From a virus: 20,462 bases of DNA. Location: the IMG/VR virus record IMGVR_UViG_3300029839_000013, positions 1 to 20,462 of that record. One strand, written 5' to 3'. A model generated the notes under the pieces. The model was not told where the DNA came from. It worked only from the letters and a program-made list of their open reading frames with translations, and ran no database searches. Both the position numbers and the translations under genes were made by a program. Below, in pieces: positions 1-20,462 of the stretch (position 1 is the first letter of the stretch; every line of letters starts with the position of its first letter).

Positions 1-99
1 ATAACCGCCCGTAAATATATTGTCGTCGAAAATTTGCCCTTTCGTCTTCAAATATTGGATAATAAAATACATTTCGTTAAATTCACTAGGCGTTAATAC
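1..99. repeat. Terminal direct repeat, identical to 20364-20462. Interpreted as assembly overlap of a circular or terminally redundant genome.
   Basis: Exact 99-bp identity between the two window ends. A minus-strand ORF reads through the junction in frame. Confidence 0.9.
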
Positions 100-405
100 C
101 TCTTTTGTCTGCAAATCTCGCCATTTTTTATAATCTTTTGAATTTTTAGACAAGTTGTCTATTTCGTCAGGCATAACGCAATATTTTTTATAAAAATTTT
201 CAGGCTCTAAAATATAACTGTGCCACATTTTCCCCGCCAGCATAGCCGGGCTTGTTTTTTCCTCATATAAAGGATTTAGGCGGGAATTGAACCAATATTT
301 AACCGGGCTTTCAAGTATTTTTTTCATACCTGAAAAATCAAGTCTTTCGACGTCCGAAAAATATTCATTTTCTGACATATTAAAATATATACCGTCTTTG
401 TGCAT
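1..405 (-). CDS. N-terminal portion of the same wrapped exonuclease gene. Bases 1-99 duplicate 20364-20462.
   Basis: I translated the minus strand from 405 down to 1 and found no stop codon. It is in frame with the ATG at 72-70 that starts the ORF-track protein. The N-terminal motif GIYFNMSENEYFSDVERLDFSGMKKILESPVKYW resembles the DUF3799/exonuclease VIII-like N-terminus (YHa...S.S.LK...SP). Confidence 0.55.
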   Translation of the reverse strand, partial: MHKDGIYFNMSENEYFSDVERLDFSGMKKILESPVKYWFNSRLNPLYEEKTSPAMLAGKMWHSYILEPENFYKKYCVMPDEIDNLSKNSKDYKKWRDLQTKEVLTPSEFNEMYFIIQYLKTKGQIFDDNIFTGGY

Positions 406-539
406 GTTTTACCTCTCTTTTTTTAAATTACATTTCACAAATAATCTTTTTTTTAATAATGTCAATAAAAAAAATGGTTGATTATTATTTTTTTTAGTTT
501 AAATTGGTGTTTGTGATAACTTTTTACGAAAGGAAAAAA
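406..539. promoter_or_regulatory. AT-rich divergent intergenic region between the minus-strand exonuclease start and the plus-strand gene start. It contains a TTGACA hexamer on the minus strand near 459-464.
   Basis: 134 bp of non-coding sequence between two diverging genes. It carries a TTGACA -35-like hexamer but no clean -10 at 17-bp spacing. Confidence 0.3.
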
Positions 540-1193
540 ATGAATAATAATATAAACCCCTTAGATATTAACGCACAAATTTTTTTAGACACGGCAGAAA
601 AAACAACCATAGACAACGAAGCCGATAACTTAAACGCTTGCCAGTATTTAAAAGCTGTTAATGATTATAAAAAAACGCTTGACTTGCAAATTGATACACT
701 TGAAAAACCGCTAAAAACTGAGCTAAAAAAAATAAAAAATCATTATGACGTCCCAGTTAATTTGCTTAAAAAAGCGGATAATATCTTACGCGACAAGTTG
801 TCTAACTATGCAACTGTTAAATTTCATGACTTATTAAATGAACGCTTGGCACAAAAAGCGCAGCGCGAGGATGAAGCTTTAAATTTGGCGCTTGAGCTTG
901 AACAGCAAAAAAATGGTGATTACGACGAAATTACAAAGGAAGCCGTTGTTAAGACTTTGACGGCAAAGCAAAACAAGCTAATTGATGATACGGCCGATAT
1001 TGATGAGGTCAATATCTCAAATGAATATGTTACATTTCGCCAATTGTGGACTTTTGATGTGATCGACATTTCAAAAGTTCCGGCCGAATTTATTACAATT
1101 GACACAAAGGCAGTCAACGAGGCAATTAAGGCCGGAGCGGTGGAGATTGACGGCCTGAGAATTTACAAGAAAATTATTCCGTCTTTAAAATAA
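540..1193 (+). CDS. Hypothetical 217-aa protein with a long charged coiled-coil N-terminus and a compact C-terminal domain. It could be a Gam-like DNA-end-binding protein or a regulator, but this is unassigned.
   Basis: ATG at 540 preceded by GAAAGGAAAAAAA. The ORF track began the frame at an upstream TTG (504). This is the only substantial plus-strand gene. The C-terminal segment (VTFRQLWTFDVIDISK...ITIDTKAVNEAIKAGAVEIDGLRIY) is loosely reminiscent of the Mu Gam C-terminus. Confidence 0.6.
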   Translation: MNNNINPLDINAQIFLDTAEKTTIDNEADNLNACQYLKAVNDYKKTLDLQIDTLEKPLKTELKKIKNHYDVPVNLLKKADNILRDKLSNYATVKFHDLLNERLAQKAQREDEALNLALELEQQKNGDYDEITKEAVVKTLTAKQNKLIDDTADIDEVNISNEYVTFRQLWTFDVIDISKVPAEFITIDTKAVNEAIKAGAVEIDGLRIYKKIIPSLK

Positions 1194-1207
1194 CAAAGGG
1201 GGGCATC

Positions 1208-1351
1208 ATGAAAAAAATACAATTTTCTATTTGTGTCGATGAAGACACGTTAAAAAAGATTGATAAACTGGCTAATAATGAGGGACGCAGCCGGTCGCAA
1301 ATGATTTTATATATTTTGAAACTTTTTTTAAAAAAAGAGGGGAGCGAATAG
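1208..1351 (+). CDS. 47-aa ribbon-helix-helix (CopG/Arc/MetJ-type) DNA-binding protein.
   Basis: ATG at 1208 after AAAGGGGGG. The sequence MKKIQFSICVDEDTLKKIDKLANNEGRSRSQMILYILKLFLKKEGSE fits a beta-strand followed by two helices. It is below the ORF-track size cutoff. Confidence 0.6.
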   Translation: MKKIQFSICVDEDTLKKIDKLANNEGRSRSQMILYILKLFLKKEGSE

Positions 1352-1362
1352 CTCCCTTTTTT
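1331..1362. terminator. Bidirectional rho-independent terminator between the convergent RHH gene and the o-spanin gene.
   Basis: Stem GGGAGC-gaata-GCTCCC, followed by six T on the plus strand and by seven T on the minus strand. Confidence 0.7.
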
Positions 1363-1576
1363 ATTGCGCTTCGTGAAGTTGTTTAACGCACTCCAAAGCG
1401 TCCATTGTGGTAACTATTGAGTAGATACAATTATTTTTTGCTCGTTTACTCGCGCAGCCACTTAATAACATCATCAGGCAAAGCAGTGTTGAGACAATCG
1501 CAATCTTTATTTTGCGGTTTCGCCTCTTTTTTTCGCAATACGGCGATTTTCTTCTCGGTGCAAATAGATTTTTCAT
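1361..1576 (-). CDS. Putative o-spanin (outer-membrane lipoprotein), overlapped type.
   Basis: Signal-like segment IAIVSTLLCLMMLLSGC with an LSGC lipobox, then a short Cys-containing mature region. It starts inside the i-spanin gene in another frame and extends beyond it. Basic N-terminal extension is unusually long, so the true start is uncertain. Confidence 0.5.
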   Translation of the reverse strand: MKNLFAPRRKSPYCEKKRRNRKIKIAIVSTLLCLMMLLSGCASKRAKNNCIYSIVTTMDALECVKQLHEAQ

Positions 1577-1706
1577 TTTTAACCTTTCTTTCTTCCTCTG
1601 TGGCAGAAAAAGCAGCTTGCTGCTCTATTCTTTTCCCTTTCTCAAATTGCCAAAGCTGAAAAAGGATTATATTCGCGATTATTGAGGCCAAAAATATTTT
1701 TTTCAT
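1446..1706 (-). CDS. Putative i-spanin (type II inner-membrane protein with a periplasmic coiled-coil).
   Basis: N-terminal transmembrane segment IFLASIIANIILF, then a charged helical region. It lies at the end of the lysis cassette and overlaps the lipoprotein ORF. Confidence 0.5.
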   Translation of the reverse strand: MKKIFLASIIANIILFQLWQFEKGKRIEQQAAFSATEEERKVKNEKSICTEKKIAVLRKKEAKPQNKDCDCLNTALPDDVIKWLRE

Positions 1707-1831
1707 AAGACATCCAGAATTTTAATACTTATCGCTTCGGCCGCTTCAAATTTGTTAGAAATTAACAAATATAGACATTCCAACAATATACATATTATTA
1801 CAGCTCTTGTAAATTCAATGCCCAGCTTCAT
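1703..1831 (-). CDS. 42-aa membrane peptide lying between the hydrolase and i-spanin genes. Candidate antiholin or lysis regulator.
   Basis: Sequence MKLGIEFTRAVIICILLECLYLLISNKFEAAEAISIKILDVL. Its ATG overlaps the hydrolase TGA (ATGA), and its TGA overlaps the i-spanin ATG (ATGA). A CGGGAT ribosome-binding site lies upstream. It fills an otherwise 120-bp gap. Confidence 0.4.
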   Translation of the reverse strand: MKLGIEFTRAVIICILLECLYLLISNKFEAAEAISIKILDVL

Positions 1832-2250
1832 AATATCCCGCAATAAAATAGATGATCGCCTATCAAAAAGTCTGCTTTTTTATTTTTAGCCCACTTCGGC
1901 AAAACATTAACGGTATGATAATGGCATGCACCACATACAACGTCTTTCAATTCCCCGCTAATATATTTTTTTGCAATTTCTAAACATTTTGAAAATTGCG
2001 CGTCTTCAGTTGTTACGGATATAAGCTTTTTAAAATTCGGGTCGCTTTCATTCCAACAAGAAAATTGATGAAATTTTGAACCCTTTACACAGAATTGACA
2101 TGTTTCTGCGATTGTTGAGCCGGAAAACCATTTTTTTGCCTTGTAGCGGTTTAAAATTACGGACGCAACAGCCATTTTCCCCAAATCTGTCTCGCCTCTG
2201 GCCTCTCCGTAAATAGTGCGCGCTAAAATATCAATGTCGTTTTCTTTCAT
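1828..2250 (-). CDS. Cell-wall hydrolase of the SleB/CwlJ (Hydrolase_2) type. Probable endolysin.
   Basis: N-terminal motif LARTIYGEARGE...ASVILNR is characteristic of that family. It immediately follows the holin with a 20-nt overlap. Confidence 0.7.
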   Translation of the reverse strand: MKENDIDILARTIYGEARGETDLGKMAVASVILNRYKAKKWFSGSTIAETCQFCVKGSKFHQFSCWNESDPNFKKLISVTTEDAQFSKCLEIAKKYISGELKDVVCGACHYHTVNVLPKWAKNKKADFLIGDHLFYCGIL

Positions 2251-2434
2251 TTTTTAAATTGTCCTCTGCAATTTTTGCTTCTGCCCGCTCTTTTCTTATG
2301 CGATACACTAAATAAACAATAGTTACGATAAAGATAAACACACTTTGAATTTGCGGCAAATATTGGATAATAAGGGCAACCGCTGACCCTGCACAAATTG
2401 TGAAGCAATTATTGTTAATCATTTTTTCGACCAT
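2231..2434 (-). CDS. Holin-like small membrane protein.
   Basis: Two hydrophobic segments (CFTICAGSAVALIIQYL and VFIFIVTIVYLVY) and a charged C-terminus. AGGTGG ribosome-binding site 5 nt upstream of the ATG at 2434; the ORF track used a GTG at 2443. It is the first gene after the terminator. Confidence 0.6.
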   Translation of the reverse strand: MVEKMINNNCFTICAGSAVALIIQYLPQIQSVFIFIVTIVYLVYRIRKERAEAKIAEDNLKNERKRH

Positions 2435-2481
2435 GTTAACCACCTATTAAAAGGGTTTCATAAAATTTTTAAAATGTCAAC

Positions 2482-2512
2482 AAAAAAAGGGAAAGCGCTT
2501 AACTTTCCCTTT
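2482..2512 (-). terminator. Rho-independent terminator downstream of the lysozyme-like gene.
   Basis: Stem AAGGGAAAG-cgcttaa-CTTTCCCTT, followed by seven T on the minus strand. Confidence 0.6.
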
Positions 2513-2540
2513 TGAGGTCGAAACATACAACGTTTATATA

Positions 2541-2999
2541 TTACTTTGTTTCTTCTTTTTTGTCAACGCCAAAGAAAAGTTTAATTTCTTCGTCTCTCCA
2601 TGCGGGAAAATCCAGCCCTTCAAAATTTACAGCTTTCAACGCTTCCCACTCAGTTCGTGCCGTCTCCATGTCTCCGGCTTCGATTGCTTTACAAAGCGGA
2701 GATTCCGGCCAAGTCTCTTTTTGGATGAAGTGCATAATTGACAATAAAGCTTCTTTCTGATTTTCCGACCAATCCCCGGCCGGGAGTTCAAACTCGGCTA
2801 AATGGTCTTTCAAAATCTGGTCGGCCTCATCTTGGGTTACTTCGTCGCCCTCTTGGACAAGACGCCCGCCTTTAAAAGTCTTAGGATATTGCAAAATCCA
2901 ACATCCAATTACCCAAAATGTGTATTGAAATTCTTTGTATGAATTTACGGCTTTCAAGAAACAAGGCGTATATTTTTTAATCATCTCAAAAGCTTTCAT
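2541..2999 (-). CDS. T4-lysozyme-like (GH24 fold) protein, 152 aa. The canonical catalytic Glu/Asp/Thr appear to be missing.
   Basis: ATG at 2999 with an AGGGGAA ribosome-binding site. The ORF-track N-terminal extension (to 3116) overlaps the fibre gene and is spurious. Segments EVTQDEADQILKDHL and ALLSIMHFIQKETW...KAIEAGDMETARTEWEAL...RDEEIKLFFG run parallel to T4L VITKDEAEKLF, ALINMVFQMGETG, RMLQQKRWDEAAV and RAKRVITTF. Confidence 0.55.
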   Translation of the reverse strand: MKAFEMIKKYTPCFLKAVNSYKEFQYTFWVIGCWILQYPKTFKGGRLVQEGDEVTQDEADQILKDHLAEFELPAGDWSENQKEALLSIMHFIQKETWPESPLCKAIEAGDMETARTEWEALKAVNFEGLDFPAWRDEEIKLFFGVDKKEETK

Positions 3000-3009
3000 C
3001 TTTTTTCCC

Positions 3010-4221
3010 CTATTTATATTTACGTAAATATTGTAATTTTCCATATCCATTAACTGAACCGGTACCATAACCACCCCAAACAGATGCGCCGTGATGTGAC
3101 CCTGAACTGTCGCCACCGTTTCCGCCTCTGTTCAATGCTGGCGGCTGTAATAGCTCAACATACCCATGCCCGTTTAATATTGGAGCATCCGCGCCACGGC
3201 CGCCGCCTGACGCGGACGCAGAATAACCTGAATTACATTGTATTACAGTCAACCAATTATCTGGCGTTGTTAAATCGGAAATTTGGAATAAAGACGCTTG
3301 TTCCCTCACCCCTACAACCATGCGTATATTGCAGGGTCTAGCTATGTAAGCATCCCCGACATAACCGGCGGCAGAACCTGAGTAGTTTGTACCATAATAT
3401 GACCAAGTTGTCGGATTGCCGCCGCCGATGCAATGAATTTGAATAACTCCCGGCTTTGTCATTACACCGTTAAAAATTTGCTGCACATTTGGATTTGCCA
3501 CCTCTCCGATGACATACGAAGGCGCATATGCTTGAACGTCAAATACTTTTTGACCATTTAAATACGCTTGGCCTATCGGTTTCGAAACAATTTCTGTTTT
3601 TTTATTACGCCAAAAAGGGGAGCCGTTAACGTTTATTTCTGTTTTGCCAAGATAAATTTGAGCGCGGAAATATGTATCGCTTGCCGCTCCGTCGTTTCCA
3701 ATCCAAGTTTGGGGCGTATTAATTTTATAAAGACTTATTGTGTTTTCAACGGCGATTTCTTCTTTAAAATCTTTATCAGCCGTTTTTTTCATTTGTACAG
3801 TATAGCGCAACCCCGTATATTTAACGATTACGTCATAAACATTATAAGGGTCCATGCCTGTCTTACCTTTTGCATTGACTAAATCCCAGCTTGTACCGTT
3901 TGAGCTTACAAACAATGCTATTTTGCGGTTTAAAATTGCTAATTTTACACTTTTATAATTTTCCGCAGCGCCAAAAATATATTGGTCTTGATTTAAATTG
4001 CCAAGCTCGAAAGAAAATCTGACTTTTATCTCCCAAGGGTACGCCTCGGGGGTAAACGGTGGAATTTTTAAAAAATTGGCATTTGAAAACCCCTTTACAT
4101 TGTTCCCGTTTATTGTTGGGCTTCCGTTTACTTCAAAATTGTTAGATGTTAAATTAGCGGTTAAATATAATCCATTTGCGCCGTATTCTCTTATTCTTTT
4201 ACCCCTATAATACAAAGGCAT
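3010..4221 (-). CDS. Tail fibre or receptor-binding protein (403 aa) with a Gly/Ser-rich C-terminus.
   Basis: Last and largest gene of the tail module. It is Asn/Gly/Thr-rich, and its C-terminal 70 aa are glycine-rich (GGGRGADAPILNGHGY...GGNGGDSSGSHHGASVWGGYGTGSVNGYG). GGAGAA ribosome-binding site upstream. Confidence 0.6.
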   Translation of the reverse strand: MPLYYRGKRIREYGANGLYLTANLTSNNFEVNGSPTINGNNVKGFSNANFLKIPPFTPEAYPWEIKVRFSFELGNLNQDQYIFGAAENYKSVKLAILNRKIALFVSSNGTSWDLVNAKGKTGMDPYNVYDVIVKYTGLRYTVQMKKTADKDFKEEIAVENTISLYKINTPQTWIGNDGAASDTYFRAQIYLGKTEINVNGSPFWRNKKTEIVSKPIGQAYLNGQKVFDVQAYAPSYVIGEVANPNVQQIFNGVMTKPGVIQIHCIGGGNPTTWSYYGTNYSGSAAGYVGDAYIARPCNIRMVVGVREQASLFQISDLTTPDNWLTVIQCNSGYSASASGGGRGADAPILNGHGYVELLQPPALNRGGNGGDSSGSHHGASVWGGYGTGSVNGYGKLQYLRKYK

Positions 4222-4223
4222 AG

Positions 4224-4529
4224 TTAATTCTCCGGGATGCAGTAAAGAACGTTTAAATCACTTCCGGCTTGATTAACAAGCTGAATTTTATAATTTCCAA
4301 AATCCCAAACAGCTTTTGCGCTTGGATAATGTGTCGCGTCAGATGATGAGTTAACAACATCAACCCTATTTTCGACAGCTTGCAAATAGGCTTTTAAATA
4401 TGTTGCCATTTGCAAACAAGTGGCCGAATTAGTAGCGGCTCCAGTTGATACGGCTAACGCGTAGCTATCCTCTAAATTTGCTATGCGCTCCAAATCACTA
4501 ATTGTCTTAACTTGGTCAATATTAGGCAT
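4224..4529 (-). CDS. Hypothetical 101-aa tail protein sitting directly upstream of the fibre. It may be a fibre N-terminal or adaptor module.
   Basis: Position, and the C-terminal motif SDATHYPSAKAVWDF, which resembles fibre sequences. Its stop lies 2 nt before the fibre ATG. Confidence 0.35.
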   Translation of the reverse strand: MPNIDQVKTISDLERIANLEDSYALAVSTGAATNSATCLQMATYLKAYLQAVENRVDVVNSSSDATHYPSAKAVWDFGNYKIQLVNQAGSDLNVLYCIPEN

Positions 4530-5079
4530 TGTCTGGGTTCTCCTGTGTGTATGTGAATTCTAAATACGTTCCGGCGTTTGTCATCTCTTGCAACATATTC
4601 GCTAGTTGCCTATCAGTTATGCGCGCGACTAAGGCCGCAAATCCTAAATAGTCGCCTGCTTCGGTTGTAACATAAAATTTATATTCTTCATCGACCCATA
4701 AAAAATATTCAACATAACGCGCGATAATGTCAATTTTTATATGTAAAGGATTTTTCTCGTCGATTGTAATCGTAGCATTTGAGCCAAAAATTGAATATAA
4801 AATTTTACAATAGGCATCTGGCGTCCCAATAAATTCTTGAGCTTCTATTATAGTGTAAAATGTTGAAATGAATAAATTCTTTTCCAAAATATTATAAATC
4901 GGGACAATTTGTTGATTGTATAATGTTCTCCCCAACTCCGGAGATTTATAAAAATTATCATAATAGGCCTTTAAGTCGTCCATGGTTGGCTTAAGGATTT
5001 TTAAAAACGTTTGAAAAAAACGATTTGCGTTTTCGTCATTCTGCGTAAAAAGTTGATGTCTATACTCTGGATTACTCAT
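4522..5079 (-). CDS. Baseplate-associated protein, possibly P2 gpI/DUF2313-like. Assigned by position only.
   Basis: Follows the J-like gene with an 8-nt overlap. 185 aa. Confidence 0.3.
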   Translation of the reverse strand: MSNPEYRHQLFTQNDENANRFFQTFLKILKPTMDDLKAYYDNFYKSPELGRTLYNQQIVPIYNILEKNLFISTFYTIIEAQEFIGTPDAYCKILYSIFGSNATITIDEKNPLHIKIDIIARYVEYFLWVDEEYKFYVTTEAGDYLGFAALVARITDRQLANMLQEMTNAGTYLEFTYTQENPDNA

Positions 5080-5884
5080 CTATAATTTCGGCGTTGACCG
5101 TCCCTAATACGATTTTTTGATTATATGCCGATTTAAATACTTCTCCAGTAAAAGAACCAGAACCATTTTGATAAGTTACCGTAATGGACGAACTCCACGG
5201 CAGTTGTTCTTTGCAAAGATAACTATCGGGTTCAAAATCTTTTCCCAATCTATAACTTTGTTTAAAAAGTTCCCGAAAAAGATTGTTAATTGTCACTTCG
5301 GCCGGAATAAATTCCGTCGTATTACGCGACACTGTAATCGCAATTTTTATGTTAAACGTTAAGACTGTCGGGATTGCGTATGAAATCGGGAATTTTTGTC
5401 CGTTGATGCCTGTAAAAAATCCAGTTTCTGAACCGGAATAAACTATGCCAGTAGTAGCGCATTGGCCTATTTTGTTAATAATATTCTGTTTTAAAGTTGC
5501 GTAATCTTCCGCCGATGTGTCCACATCACAAGCAATATCACAAGTTCCGCGTTTGTCTGGCGTGGTAATTGGTGCGATTGAGGCTATAACTCCCAAATCG
5601 TTCGCTAATGCCTGCATGATGCCGTTAGGTGATGACTTAGGATATTTTATTTTGTCGTTTATATAAGTAACATAATCTTGCGCTTTATTGCCGATTTGAC
5701 TAATCCCGTTCTCAACACCTTGCGCGATTTGCAAAGCAGGATAATAAAGCTTATAGATATTACTCCCGACGATAGTCTCGGGGGTATATGTTTCGCCGTA
5801 TTCTTCGTTTACAGCATTCACTAAATCGTTAACTAAATCTTCGTTAGTTCGTGGACTATAACCATTTTCGACGCTAAAACTCAT
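5072..5884 (-). CDS. Baseplate J-like wedge protein (P2 gpJ / Mu gp47 / T4 gp6 family).
   Basis: Lies immediately downstream of the gp25-like gene. Size 270 aa. The N-terminal region (PRTNEDLVNDLVNAVNEEYGETYTPETIVGSNIYKL) is similar to Baseplate_J N-terminal motifs. Confidence 0.45.
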   Translation of the reverse strand: MSFSVENGYSPRTNEDLVNDLVNAVNEEYGETYTPETIVGSNIYKLYYPALQIAQGVENGISQIGNKAQDYVTYINDKIKYPKSSPNGIMQALANDLGVIASIAPITTPDKRGTCDIACDVDTSAEDYATLKQNIINKIGQCATTGIVYSGSETGFFTGINGQKFPISYAIPTVLTFNIKIAITVSRNTTEFIPAEVTINNLFRELFKQSYRLGKDFEPDSYLCKEQLPWSSSITVTYQNGSGSFTGEVFKSAYNQKIVLGTVNAEIIDE

Positions 5885-6189
5885 TGGCTTACTAATCCTT
5901 CTAAATCTTGTTCCTCAGCAAAAAAATTAAATACGGTTTCAAATATTCTATCGACCTGCTCGACCTTCGTTATATTTATGCCATTTTCGACTAATTTATT
6001 AACAGCATATGATTTAAAAGTTTCTGTTTGAATAACAACATCGGGGTCAATAAATCGTTTTAAATCAATACCAAAATTCGGGGCATAATATAAATAACCC
6101 TCTTGCGTGGTCAATAAATTTTCGCCTTTATAGACGATTGTATCGTTAAAAAATGGCATCCCTTCGCTGTCAAAGTCAACATCTTTCAT
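5881..6189 (-). CDS. gp25/gpW-like baseplate wedge protein.
   Basis: YAPNFGIDLKRFID parallels the T4 gp25 motif PFDPEFGCDLSDQLF, and ETFKSYAVNKLVENGINIT parallels VERNIESAVRNYEPRI. About 100 aa. Precedes the J-like gene. Confidence 0.5.
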   Translation of the reverse strand: MKDVDFDSEGMPFFNDTIVYKGENLLTTQEGYLYYAPNFGIDLKRFIDPDVVIQTETFKSYAVNKLVENGINITKVEQVDRIFETVFNFFAEEQDLEGLVSQ

Positions 6190-6563
6190 TTTAAATCTTT
6201 CTGCAAATCATCGAAATCCTGCTGTATTATTGTTAAATCTTGAATTTTTTTAAGCATATCCGCCTTGAATGTTGGCGCGGTAATTTCGCCGCCGCCATTG
6301 CTGGCGTAAATTTCATTACTTATCAATAATATCAAATCGTTTAAGAATTGCAACAAATCTTTATTAACATCAATTAACTTGTCAATATCGGGGGAGGTGT
6401 TGGGGATGTAAACAAGCTTATCCTCAGCAAACACAACAGCGCCAGAGCTATCGCCGCCCAGCCCCAAAATTTCACAACCTGTTACGGGTTTGCCCTCAAT
6501 CAACACTTGGCCGCCTGTCACATTTGCGCTAAATACCTTCATAATAAAACCTTTCAATTGCAT
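6186..6563 (-). CDS. Small baseplate protein, possibly a spike or hub component (gpV-like). Assigned by position.
   Basis: Position upstream of the gp25-like gene. A Gly-rich beta-like N-terminus. An alternative start at 6542 has a GAAAGG ribosome-binding site. Confidence 0.3.
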   Translation of the reverse strand: MQLKGFIMKVFSANVTGGQVLIEGKPVTGCEILGLGGDSSGAVVFAEDKLVYIPNTSPDIDKLIDVNKDLLQFLNDLILLISNEIYASNGGGEITAPTFKADMLKKIQDLTIIQQDFDDLQKDLK

Positions 6564-17942: not shown

Positions 17943-18102
17943 TTTTATTGTCCTCTCTCAGTTTTTTTAAAACTTCTTTCAAATAAGCAAATTCGGCTTC
18001 TGTTAAAAAAAATTGCCTTTGCTTGCGTCCGCTCTTTTTTTGAGCCTCACGGTATCTTTTTGCCCGTTCTCGCAGTATTTTATGGTATTCATCTAACTTC
18101 AT
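17935..18102 (-). CDS. Unlisted 55-aa basic ORF (MKLDEYHKILRERAKRYREAQKKSGRKQRQFFLTEAEFAYLKEVLKKLREDNKNE).
   Basis: Fills the 146-bp gap between two ORF-track genes. Its stop overlaps the next ATG (AAAAATGAGTAA). Confidence 0.3.
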   Translation of the reverse strand: MKLDEYHKILRERAKRYREAQKKSGRKQRQFFLTEAEFAYLKEVLKKLREDNKNE

Positions 18103-18364
18103 TTATTATCCTTTCACATTCAATTAAAAATCTGTTTTTCTTATCTTGAAAAACCGCCCTTAAATCGTCAATCAATTCTTCTTTTGCGGTCTCTAAGGCG
18201 TCGGCTTGGTCACCCCTCCCGTAATCCTCTACATCGACGCCGAACCAATTTTTAAACACAATTTTGGCGCTTGATTGCAAAATTGAAAGCTGGCGGCTGT
18301 AAACTTCTTCGGCCAAACCGTTATTTAATTCGCTCATTTCGCCCCTTAATAAATCACTATTCAT
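18089..18364 (-). CDS. Hypothetical 91-aa acidic protein. First gene downstream of promoter/operator copy 1.
   Basis: A GGGGG ribosome-binding site lies 8 nt upstream of the ATG. It begins MNSDLL, the same six codons found in the duplicated copy. Confidence 0.5.
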   Translation of the reverse strand: MNSDLLRGEMSELNNGLAEEVYSRQLSILQSSAKIVFKNWFGVDVEDYGRGDQADALETAKEELIDDLRAVFQDKKNRFLIECERIINEVR

Positions 18365-18423
18365 TTTACTAACCCCCTTTGTTATTATGTTATTAGTATG
18401 ATACTAATATTTTACGATGTCAA
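18365..18423 (-). promoter_or_regulatory. Sigma70-type promoter with an embedded 19-bp perfect palindromic operator (copy 1).
   Basis: On the minus strand: TTGACA, a 17-nt spacer, then CATACT. The palindrome TATTAGTAT-G-ATACTAATA spans the spacer and the -10. Confidence 0.6.
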
Positions 18424-18434
18424 CACCTTTTTTT

Positions 18435-18468
18435 AAAAAAAACACCCTATTTTTTAGGGTGTTTTTAA
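18435..18468. terminator. Rho-independent terminator after the DUF1566 gene.
   Basis: AAAAACACCCTA-ttttt-TAGGGTGTTTTT. T-runs are present in both orientations. Confidence 0.6.
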
Positions 18469-18489: not shown

Positions 18490-18900
18490 TTAAAAAGCTA
18501 GAACCGGACGAACGTAGGTGCTATCGTAGTTGCTCTTACCGTAGTCGTACCTGGTACCGTCACTCATACGCAACCTCCACGCATAGTTGCTGTCGTACTC
18601 AGTAGAGGACCAGTACCAGCATTCTTTTAACTCCGGCAGGTTAGCGGCGCTCAAAGCGGCATTGATTTTGTCTTTGTTCAAAAAAATTCCGGTTAGTTCA
18701 TCAATAGTAGGGCAGCGGCCACCGGCGGATTGGCAAAACTGTTGCGCTTCGTCAAAATTAAGCCATTCCTCGCTCTCAACCGGCATAATAGCGATTTCGT
18801 GCGTGTCGGTAACATTGCACAATATGCCGGCAATCGTTTTAGACTGATCAAGCTCTTCCGAGCGCGTTCCGTCAGTGTAAATGTATGCTCCTGTTTTCAT
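18490..18900 (-). CDS. DUF1566 (Lcl C-terminal domain-like) protein.
   Basis: GRCPTIDEL...YWSSTEY...YVRPV matches the DUF1566 pattern WRLPT.eEL...YWSST...vRcV. Strong AAGGAGAA ribosome-binding site. Confidence 0.55.
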   Translation of the reverse strand: MKTGAYIYTDGTRSEELDQSKTIAGILCNVTDTHEIAIMPVESEEWLNFDEAQQFCQSAGGRCPTIDELTGIFLNKDKINAALSAANLPELKECWYWSSTEYDSNYAWRLRMSDGTRYDYGKSNYDSTYVRPVLAF

Positions 18901-18910
18901 TTTTTTCTCC

Positions 18911-19045
18911 TTATATTAAAAAAGTTAAAATAAATATTGCTGTTGAATACCCACAAAAAAAACCAATCAAAAAATCGTCTATGTTTAACACTCTTTTTTT
19001 TCGTAGTGGCGCGGTGGCTTCAAATTTAAGTAAATCACTATTCAT
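18911..19045 (-). CDS. 44-aa peptide with a hydrophobic C-terminus (MNSDLLKFEATAPLRKKRVLNIDDFLIGFFCGYSTAIFILTFLI). Speculative.
   Basis: Starts with the duplicated RBS and first six codons of the 91-aa gene. Its stop overlaps the ribosome-binding site of the DUF1566 gene. Confidence 0.3.
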   Translation of the reverse strand: MNSDLLKFEATAPLRKKRVLNIDDFLIGFFCGYSTAIFILTFLI

Positions 19046-19104
19046 TTTGTTAACCCCCTTTGTTATTATGTTATTAGTATGATACTAATATTTTACGATG
19101 TCAA
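19046..19104 (-). promoter_or_regulatory. Promoter/operator copy 2.
   Basis: 75 of 77 bp identical to copy 1, including TTGACA, the 17-nt spacer, CATACT, the 19-bp palindrome and the GGGGG ribosome-binding site. Confidence 0.6.
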
Positions 19105-19107
19105 CAC

Positions 19108-19482
19108 TTAATTATAATTTTCTTTTATTTTTTTTAGAGAAACATCGTAACAATCTAAAAATGAATAAGGAATTTTCATATTTCCTTGCTTTAGCATCAA
19201 AACAAACGCCGCTTTATCTGGCCTAAATTCAATAATTCCTTCGACATTTAATGCTGATGAATAAACGATGTCGTTATTATATAGCTTATTGCCTAATTTA
19301 TCTTTTTGGCCTGAAAAAAAATCTACACAATAATAAGGCGATTTACGACGGTCATATGTGTTTAATTGCTTATTATTACGCTTTAAATTCCCCTCTGGGC
19401 TAAGATAGTAACCGCAATAATATATCTTTTTCAAGCGTAGTTGATGCCCAACACGGCATAATTTAACAACTCTATAATCCAT
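19108..19482 (-). CDS. YopX-like protein (124 aa).
   Basis: SGQKDKLGNKLYNNDIV...EGIIEF is similar to the YopX core TGLKDKNGKEIYEGDIV...GVV.F. AGGGTG ribosome-binding site. Confidence 0.4.
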   Translation of the reverse strand: MDYRVVKLCRVGHQLRLKKIYYCGYYLSPEGNLKRNNKQLNTYDRRKSPYYCVDFFSGQKDKLGNKLYNNDIVYSSALNVEGIIEFRPDKAAFVLMLKQGNMKIPYSFLDCYDVSLKKIKENYN

Positions 19483-19840: not shown

Positions 19841-20462
19841 AGTCTGACACCTCCAAAATTTTAAAAAATAGTTGTGGGAAATCTTCGTCTTTTAAAACAG
19901 ATAAATAGTCTTTTTTACCAAGCCAAGCCCGGTTAAGTCCGTACTCTCGGCAATAAAATTTATAAACATCTAATGCTTTTTTTACCTCTCCAGCAGCCAA
20001 ACGATAAAGGTCAGGGCAGGCTCCCGGCATGAAAGCGCGTAACGATGCTTCGGGCACTATCCGGCTAACATAACAAACATAAGGGCTTATGTCCTCTTGT
20101 TGTTTAAGCTCATGCCAAAACTCAACTTGCTTTTTGTCGCCAAATACTTGGCTATTATCAAAAGATTTTGCGGCATTTATGGATTCGCAATAAAAATAAA
20201 GCTGCATATAGACCTTATACTTGATGAAGAAAAGACGACAATAATCGTCAAAATCTTCTACGCTGGCCACTGTCTTTAAATCGATTAACTGTTTAAGCCT
20301 TAAGTAGTCAATGCGCGCCTTACATTTTACAGCTTGATAGGTGAAAAATATAGAGACTTCGGGATAACCGCCCGTAAATATATTGTCGTCGAAAATTTGC
20401 CCTTTCGTCTTCAAATATTGGATAATAAAATACATTTCGTTAAATTCACTAGGCGTTAATAC
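19830..20462 (-). CDS. C-terminal two-thirds of a PD-(D/E)XK exonuclease (DUF3799/RecE-like) gene. The gene continues across the window end into 1-405, and the full product is about 312 aa.
   Basis: The ORF track entry 19830-20435 begins at an internal Met. The same frame stays open upstream through the repeat, to an ATG at about 405 with an AGAGAGGT ribosome-binding site. Putative catalytic core is RIDYL...LIDLKT, matching the D...(D/E)xK pattern. Confidence 0.55.
   Translation of the reverse strand, partial: VLTPSEFNEMYFIIQYLKTKGQIFDDNIFTGGYPEVSIFFTYQAVKCKARIDYLRLKQLIDLKTVASVEDFDDYCRLFFIKYKVYMQLYFYCESINAAKSFDNSQVFGDKKQVEFWHELKQQEDISPYVCYVSRIVPEASLRAFMPGACPDLYRLAAGEVKKALDVYKFYCREYGLNRAWLGKKDYLSVLKDEDFPQLFFKILEVSDYER
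20364..20462. repeat. Second copy of the terminal repeat (same as 1-99).
   Basis: Exact identity to bases 1-99. Confidence 0.9.

Follow-up and report, generated by a model that had tools for sequence, protein, structure and literature searches.

What is a gene for a DUF1566 protein doing in a small phage, in a unit of its own with a predicted promoter, a short hydrophobic open reading frame (ORF) and a predicted terminator? The question is raised by positions 18490-19045 of IMG/VR virus record IMGVR_UViG_3300029839_000013, whose 20,462 nucleotides (nt) were analysed in full and are called the window here. The original prediction, made from the letters of the DNA, took the unit for a recently acquired accessory gene and regarded the function of DUF1566 domains in phages as unknown. 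The latter view overlooks that DUF1566 is a well-known variable-protein domain of diversity-generating retroelements (DGRs; PMC5758913, PMC4159848), and a variable region (VR) with cognate template repeats (TRs) can be identified here. To judge from the sequences, the DUF1566 gene is almost certainly a DGR target. Our full reading, to which we assign a probability of about 0.78, is that the unit is a mobile cassette of a phage which lacks reverse transcriptase (RT) and infects an uncultured gut alphaproteobacterium, and that it carries a DGR target whose diversifier resides in the host.

Hypervariation at the end of the DUF1566 gene

The gene and the parts of it that matter for this reading are:

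18490-18900, minus strand: stand-alone DUF1566/Lcl_C protein of 136 amino acids (aa), assigned by Pfam, with a predicted C-type-lectin-like fold and no signal peptide
18495-18613, minus strand: DGR VR of 119 nt, homologous to a 121-nt TR at position 1121 of contig L040
18517-18594, minus strand: hypervariable codons (residues 103-128), from column entropies and the per-position base profile
18497-18513, minus strand: GC-rich VR 3' end, GTTCGTCCGGTTCTAGC, invariant in all VRs and TRs

More than 1,100 homologues share 82-91% identity with the protein. Among the best 120 of them, residues 1-101 are nearly invariant, while positions 103-106, 109, 111, 116, 118-121 and 123-128 are hypervariable with N/Y/S/D/G/T spectra, and are interspersed with the invariant A107, W108, L110, G115, R117, K122 and Y129-VRPV. 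Thirteen homologues are identical to the window protein over residues 1-101, yet differ from it at 13-18 residues of the VR. At the DNA level (31 VR sequences) all four bases occur at codon positions 1 and 2 but just C or T at position 3, the pattern left by the AAY codons of a DGR template.

The contrast between framework and VR is equally sharp within the family of small phages to which the window belongs, a tight group with genomes of 19-24 kb that share the 91-aa gene next to the unit. The window gene and L073a differ at 1/305 nt of the framework and at 18/103 nt of the VR, and the tandem genes L067a and L067b at 1/305 and 23/103 nt, respectively (p about 1e-10 to 1e-14 for this contrast). 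The three tandem genes of L075 follow L067a/b in having similar frameworks and diverged VRs. Overall, tandem copies within single small-phage genomes (L067a/b, L075a-c) are 1-5/305 nt apart in their frameworks and carry VRs of different TR classes, and the window gene type itself occurs in small-phage contexts with three VR alleles of different TR classes and lengths (window, L073a and L079). Since frameworks are alike and VRs are not, both in these tandem copies and among the three alleles, diversification may well have taken place in situ, on the phage.

Many homologues are found on Logan contigs of about 0.7-0.9 kb (for example L022, 914 nt, and L003, 734 nt) whose ends fall in the conserved VR/initiation of mutagenic homing (IMH) sequence or in the promoter repeats described below. 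VR hypervariability and repeats seem to fragment metagenome assemblies at these loci.

Template repeats and reverse transcriptase

A sensitive blastn search of the VR against the whole window found no second copy or TR, and Pfam and PHROGs identified no RT among the larger window ORFs. For the relatives L018 and L019 no RVT_1 match is on record among their listed genes. A TR guess, ATGAATAACGGTAACAGGAACAACAAC, had 0 matches in viral contigs. In the IMG/VR contigs a general VR/TR pattern matched gene-borne VRs only and a TR-specific pattern matched nothing, which implies that the TR is absent from IMG/VR phage contigs.

A TR query predicted from the VR base profile, GGTAAYAGGAAYAAYAAYAAYAAGAAY, matched 28 human-gut metagenome contigs. 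On these contigs lie non-coding repeats, 115-130 nt long and with A wherever the VRs vary, forming tandem arrays that count up to five units and repeat about every 252 nt. The arrays lie between bAvd and RT (L040 1121-2250, L052 3394-4520, also L047, L050, L051 and L055), and each TR unit of the host arrays is preceded by a stem-forming segment and followed by a spacer of its own. On L052, a contig of 96.9 kb, a lipoprotein-type Lcl_C target with its own VR is followed by bAvd (PF22296, 6.4e-18), the TR units and an RVT_1 reverse transcriptase (9e-19), and then by NAD-dependent DNA ligase (LigA) and IF-3. By its gene content and order this locus is a canonical chromosomal DGR.

The window VR aligns to the L040 TR without gaps, with identity reaching position 18495, and all 16 mismatches are found at TR adenines (p = 1.7e-7, with 43 A in the 114 nt scored). 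For 30 phage-borne VRs compared with their best TR, 488/520 mismatches are at adenines. The different classes and lengths of the TRs explain both the VR sequence classes and the range of protein lengths (134-137 aa).

In six further contigs (L041 ~5190, L043 ~2650, L044 ~4545, L045 ~1030, L059 ~4086, L060 ~1253) the target coding sequence abuts an unmutated TR, followed by the start of RT. These fusions look like deletions of avd and the TR array through VR/TR recombination, or like assembly chimeras.

The probable host and its temperate prophages

Outside the VR the window gene is identical at 304/305 nt to a gene of the chromosomally integrated prophage L021, which belongs to a second, temperate phage type. 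Such phages carry two or three DUF1566 paralogues in the early region, beside an S24 repressor and an ERF recombinase. Three VR-bearing paralogues are interleaved with the ERF recombinase, near the S24 repressor, in L021 (9107-12156), L024, L025, L030 and L034, and a divergent 115-aa secreted or lipoprotein-like gene adjoins the paralogues in these temperate prophages (L021 etc.). On the contigs L021, L024, L025, L030 and L034 no RT or TR was found. Thus, within the contigs searched, neither phage type encodes RT or TR, and the cognate TRs are chromosomal.

In which cell does the DGR reside? Exact look-up of IF-3 beside the DGR of L052, and of methionine aminopeptidase and RadC beside the L021 prophage, led to the same accession series (HIU53774/HIU53903, MBS7094210/MBS7094927 and MFQ8668380/MFQ8668907), under the source names Candidatus Scatocola faecipullorum, "Azospirillum sp. 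47_25" and "Alphaproteobacteria bacterium". From the shared series we infer shared metagenome-assembled genomes. The TR/RT locus would then belong to the chromosome of a gut alphaproteobacterium not yet in culture, Ca. Scatocola / "Azospirillum sp. 47_25", which would also be the host of the prophage. Some small-phage relatives encode GapR, a protein known mainly from Alphaproteobacteria. A protein scan of genome contigs with the DUF1566 protein returned an unrelated Cyclobacteriaceae match only.

The two phage types also meet on the 63.8-kb contig L069, where a temperate-type immunity region (S24 repressor, SDH protease; 1-6276) is joined to a small-phage late region. The two are joined precisely where terminator, promoter and 91-aa gene meet, and a truncated 73-aa DUF1566 remnant is present, which suggests mosaicism between the temperate and small phage families.

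A predicted lectin-like fold with the variable region at its C-terminal end

Pfam places Lcl_C/DUF1566 (PF07603) on residues 50-133 (40.4 bits against a cut-off of 34.9, E = 4.2e-10), above the gathering threshold and in agreement with the original assignment. With 120 near-identical homologues as the alignment, AlphaFold2 reached a predicted local distance difference test (pLDDT) score of 43; with 50 diverse representatives instead, the model was confident (pLDDT 97, predicted TM-score 0.90). On this model the protein is confidently predicted to adopt a C-type-lectin-like fold. The best Foldseek match in the PDB is the C-terminal domain of Legionella Lcl (8q4e, E = 4e-6, TM about 0.67), followed by Bdellovibrio Bd2740 and then by classical C-type lectin-like domains (CTLDs), and the viral structural neighbours include DUF1566 proteins that stand alone as well as tail-fibre proteins tipped by DUF1566. 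When PDB sequences were searched with a profile, only marginal CTLD matches emerged. In the model the VR (residues 102-129) spans the last strands and loops of the fold. A search for a signal peptide or hydrophobic segment found none (maximal Kyte-Doolittle mean 1.11), and PADLOC, which covers defence systems and not anti-defence, had no match for the DUF1566 protein, the 44-aa peptide or the neighbouring genes.

A mobile cassette with a duplicated promoter

The elements around the DUF1566 gene, in the direction of transcription, are:

19031-19117, minus strand: promoter/operator copy 2 (87-nt repeat), with -35 TTGACA at 19099-19104, -10 CATACT at 19076-19081 and palindrome at 19072-19090
18911-19045, minus strand: 44-aa ORF, MNSDLLKFEATAPLRKKRVLNIDDFLIGFFCGYSTAIFILTFLI, with a charged N-terminal part followed by a hydrophobic C-terminal helix
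18435-18462, minus strand: hairpin ACACCCTA-AAAAA-TAGGGTGT (18442-18462) and T7 tract (18435-18441), from folding
18350-18436, minus strand: promoter/operator copy 1, predicted driver of the 91-aa gene and the downstream packaging/structural operon
18089-18364, minus strand: 91-aa gene (MNSDLLRGEM...), right-hand border of the insertion hotspot

The two copies of the 87-nt direct repeat (18350-18436 and 19031-19117) are 93% identical, and both carry a predicted TTGACA-N17-CATACT promoter (10/12), the 19-nt palindrome TATTAGTATCATACTAATA, the Shine-Dalgarno sequence AAGGGGG and ATG AAT AGT GAT TTA. Within the window the palindrome occurs in these two copies only, with 0.01 matches expected by chance. 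Copy 2 ends with the Shine-Dalgarno sequence and the first five codons of the 44-aa ORF. Where the site is empty, as in some relatives, copy 1 is the sole promoter copy. Because the cassette has a duplicate of the promoter/operator of the downstream operon, it should share the regulation of that operon. A candidate repressor for the palindrome TATTAGTATCATACTAATA is a 47-aa ribbon-helix-helix protein (1208-1351, plus strand).

Occupancy of the site varies among near-identical phages. In L070 and L074 it is empty: one promoter is all that separates the 124-aa gene from the 91-aa gene. A single DUF1566 gene is present in the window, L072, L076 and L064, preceded by promoter and 44-aa ORF and followed by terminator and second promoter; L073 and L018 have two DUF1566 genes and L075 has three. 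L067, L068, L071 and L069 have other left-hand neighbours and the same junction of DUF1566 gene, terminator, promoter and 91-aa gene. In L077 (2420-3333) the entire unit of promoter, 43/44-aa ORF, DUF1566 gene and terminator is duplicated in tandem, and in the first copy 24 nt remain from the 3' end of a gene which, in L066, stands before the 43-aa ORF. Similarity to the DNA of unrelated temperate phages is limited to the ribosome-binding site, the gene and about 21 nt downstream. The GC content of the gene is 47.9%, against 38.3% for the phage. Since relatives hold 0, 1, 2 or 3 DUF1566 genes at this site, the unit is, by this comparison, a discrete mobile accessory cassette, and the 304/305 nt identity to the prophage gene implies recent acquisition.

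The structural part of the original prediction is thus borne out. Comparison with relatives, which it had proposed as a check, reveals presence/absence polymorphism, so that DUF1566 is not a ubiquitous core gene here, and the empty sites, the 0-3 copies, the prophage match and the deviant GC content all agree with a recently acquired accessory gene. A predicted operator-promoter copy, carried by the 87-nt repeat, does precede the 44-aa ORF. The first six codons of that ORF are indeed shared with the 91-aa ORF (both MNSDLL), five being identical in nucleotides and the sixth a synonymous Leu codon, and its stop does overlap a ribosome-binding site (TAA within TAAGGAG, 7 nt before the ATG of the 136-aa ORF). 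A transmembrane helix in its C-terminal half is again predicted, as residues 26-44 average 2.14 on the Kyte-Doolittle scale, within the range of transmembrane segments. Closure of the unit by its own terminator is likewise predicted from the hairpin and T7 tract (-17.6 kcal/mol, z = -3.2 against shuffles), which end 11 nt before the -35 hexamer of promoter copy 1. A consensus terminator scan of the window did not call the hairpin at 18442-18462, probably owing to A/T pairs that prolong the stem into the T-tract.

The 44-aa ORF is known from this small-phage family alone. Between the window and L072 it shows 7 synonymous changes over 27.8 sites and 6 non-synonymous changes over 104.2 sites (Nei-Gojobori path counts, Fisher p 0.007), and between L072 and L066 there are 8 synonymous and 3 non-synonymous changes (Fisher p 0.0002), giving a dN/dS of about 0.1-0.2 with a synonymous bias across L072, L066 and L077. 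A 43-aa form (MNDLLRFEAT...) is found behind different upstream sequence in L066 and L077. The low dN/dS and the conservation of the frame in a different upstream context indicate that the ORF is probably a genuine gene, with translation predicted, and the 43-aa form suggests that the peptide gene is older than the promoter fusion which gave it the MNSDLL start. We rejected a chance frame created by the duplication, as L072, L066 and L077 all retain the ORF and most changes in it are synonymous.

The hairpin may have a second role. Besides being a predicted intrinsic terminator it is possibly also a DGR-target hairpin or cruciform, as its 8-bp stem, with four G-C pairs and a 5-nt loop, lies 32 nt after the end of VR/TR homology. 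The chromosomal target of the host has CCCCGC-GTCA-GCGGGG 29 nt after its VR. In phage DGRs hairpins 4-34 bp downstream are required or usual, the requirement having been described for BPP-1, and their targets usually have a GC-rich stem with a 4-nt GRNA loop (PMC3240598).

The window as a whole is a complete phage genome of about 20,363 bp, circular or assembled as a circle, since positions 1-99 are repeated exactly at 20364-20462. Nearly all genes are on the minus strand, and the large terminase, portal, endolysin and spanin-like lipoprotein among the ORFs identify it as a phage. In a megablast of the whole window against GenBank phages the sole match was a 272-nt terminase stretch of Dulem virus 29, and no relatives of the 91-aa neighbour protein were found in IMG/VR. 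The only plus-strand genes are 540-1193 (217 aa, weak PHROG match to 'exonuclease') and the 47-aa gene at 1208-1351. The spanin-like lipoprotein (1361-1576, minus strand, lipobox LLSGC) and the Hydrolase_2 endolysin (1828-2250, minus strand) fit a diderm host.

Proposed mechanism and alternatives

How could a phage without RT acquire such variation? We propose that phage DNA, as a replicating genome or a prophage, resides in a DGR-positive cell, where host RT and Avd would use one of the TR RNAs, of which there are up to five, as template for cDNA mutagenised at adenines. The cDNA would then replace the phage VR, with the invariant GC-rich 3' end of the VR as guide and perhaps the hairpin 32 nt downstream as a second one. 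As a result, 13 AAY codons and other adenine-containing codons would be rewritten, the AAY codons alone allowing at least 15^13 variants, and in the model the rewritten residues would lie on the C-terminal strands and loops of the C-type-lectin-like protein. Since the protein has no signal peptide, the variable ligand that it presumably binds would be met within the infected cell or after lysis. That a host DGR diversifies the phage-borne VR in trans seems likely to us on sequence grounds. A further step is more speculative and, taken as a whole, unlikely to hold in this form: that temperate and small RT-less phages both exploit a multi-template DGR of the host to re-diversify intracellular lectin-fold binders without signal peptide, made from early or accessory cassettes, as a phage-side repertoire that could, for example, neutralise variable proteins of host defences or of competitor phages.

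Several points weigh against the trans reaction. Retrohoming into the phage copy is deduced, as is the presence of small phage and DGR together in one cell. Among the mismatches of the 30 phage VRs, 32/520 fall outside TR adenines. Six contigs from several samples encode the window protein without a single change, so that in this lineage diversification can be no more than episodic. The hairpin of the window has an AT-rich extension and a 5-nt loop, unlike usual phage DGR targets, and L075 has three diversified VRs without a hairpin. Finally, recombination with prophage alleles could import VRs. This last process is central to an explanation in which the VR is a fossil, diversified elsewhere (in temperate prophages or in the cell), recombined into the small phage and static there, with alleles that reflect gene exchange. 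It would account for the identical protein on 6 contigs and for the near-identity of the framework to the prophage gene, and it fits a site that is a recombination hotspot with mosaic left junctions, as well as the ERF recombinase that adjoins the DUF1566 genes of temperate phages. However, it fares less well with the tandem copies of L067 and L075, which share frameworks (1-5/305 nt) but have unrelated VRs of different TR classes, with the three VR alleles of the window gene type in small-phage contexts, and with a VR 3' end and downstream flank that stay intact. We regard it as unlikely.

Diversification on the phage also has to be set against two other views of the gene. It could be an ordinary moron of fixed function (superinfection exclusion, host takeover or anti-defence, as had been suggested), shaped by normal mutation and positive selection with no retroelement involved. 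The cassette structure, the presence/absence polymorphism and the position of the temperate-phage homologues next to the immunity region would suit a moron, but variation is limited to codon positions 1 and 2 of about 20 codons, every difference of the window from a physically separate TR is at an adenine, that TR is located between bAvd and RT, and PADLOC found no match. The adenine-specific TR/VR pattern already contradicts this view, and we give it very little credence. Alternatively, the protein could belong to the virion, as a receptor-binding or decoration module comparable to Mtd and DGR-targeted tail fibres, and not act as a binder within the cell. In its favour, phage DGRs mostly target receptor-binding proteins (bioRxiv 10.1101/2024.10.15.618418), the structural neighbours include tail fibres tipped with DUF1566, and the cassette lies just upstream of the packaging/structural operon with the same promoter. 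Yet in the model the lectin-like fold fills all 136 aa and leaves no attachment domain, the gene is dispensable (0-3 copies in near-identical phages), and the temperate-phage paralogues sit in the early region by repressor and ERF, far from tail genes. A virion role is quite improbable in our judgement.

Implications

DGRs are the only known systems for targeted hypermutation of proteins in prokaryotes. They are usually viewed as self-contained, a phage DGR acting on its own tail fibre and a cellular DGR on its own surface proteins. Here the parts are split over replicons with conflicting interests, with a chromosomal diversifier and up to five templates on one side and targets on at least two RT-less phage families on the other. 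If the trans reaction is true, the reach of a DGR extends past its own genome, these phages can be assigned to hosts by sequence, and a class of small cytoplasmic hypervariable binders exists in phage early and accessory regions. For many "DUF1566 hypothetical proteins" of gut viromes it would also supply a concrete meaning that can be tested, and it may explain why assemblies break into contigs of about 0.9 kb at such genes.

Comparison with known systems

DUF1566 is a recognised class of DGR target ('category d'/CLec2, e.g. Legionella LdtA; PMC5758913, PMC4159848), about half of which consists of short DUF1566-only proteins (PMC5758913). The window protein resembles LdtA and category d (Wu et al. 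2018) in its C-terminal VR within a DUF1566/Lcl_C lectin-like domain, its AAY codons and its YVRPV-type invariant end. However, LdtA and the target of the host (L052, 273 aa) are surface-displayed lipoproteins next to avd-TR-RT, whereas the window protein has no signal peptide and is encoded by a phage without RT and TR. With BPP-1 Mtd it has in common a phage-borne CLec-fold protein, a 3' VR, a GC-rich VR end followed within about 30 nt by a hairpin (here a possible target element), and adenine-specific transfer from TR to VR. In contrast to BPP-1, where avd-TR-brt acts in cis and Mtd is the tip of the tail fibre, RT and TR are chromosomal here and the target lies in a cassette that is dispensable and non-structural; the hairpin also differs from the BPP-1 type in its AT-rich flanks and 5-nt loop. 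A phage DGR acting in cis has RT, Avd and TR on the VR-bearing genome, and the window is not of this kind.

Action of one DGR on several targets in trans has been shown with plasmid-borne avd-TR-brt (PMC5758913), and DGRs with more than one TR were noted earlier (PMC6642488). The TvpA paralogues of Treponema denticola are similar in that remote targets share VR/IMH with one DGR. Known remote targets such as TvpA are on the same replicon or genome as the DGR, while here the target is on a phage. Wu et al. discussed the action of phage-borne DGRs on remote cellular targets and judged it unlikely (PMC5758913); the converse, a cellular DGR whose targets are on phages, did not turn up in the papers searched. 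Toutatisvirus phages of Faecalibacterium also have VR-bearing CLec-like targets and no RT (bioRxiv 10.1101/2024.10.15.618418), but there 68% of the phage community encodes a DGR and its absence was read as loss, whereas neither family described here was seen with RT or TR. In the literature searched we found no cellular DGR with cognate VRs on RT-less phages, in dispensable non-structural cassettes whose proteins have no signal peptide. Like phage morons, the cassette has its own (predicted) promoter and terminator, variable presence in near-identical genomes and deviant GC content; unlike them, its promoter duplicates the promoter/operator of the neighbouring operon and its cargo is a hypermutation target. 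The element is of a known kind, a DGR target with a CLec fold, in an unusual set-up: an RT-less phage carries the target, and the diversifier belongs to the host.

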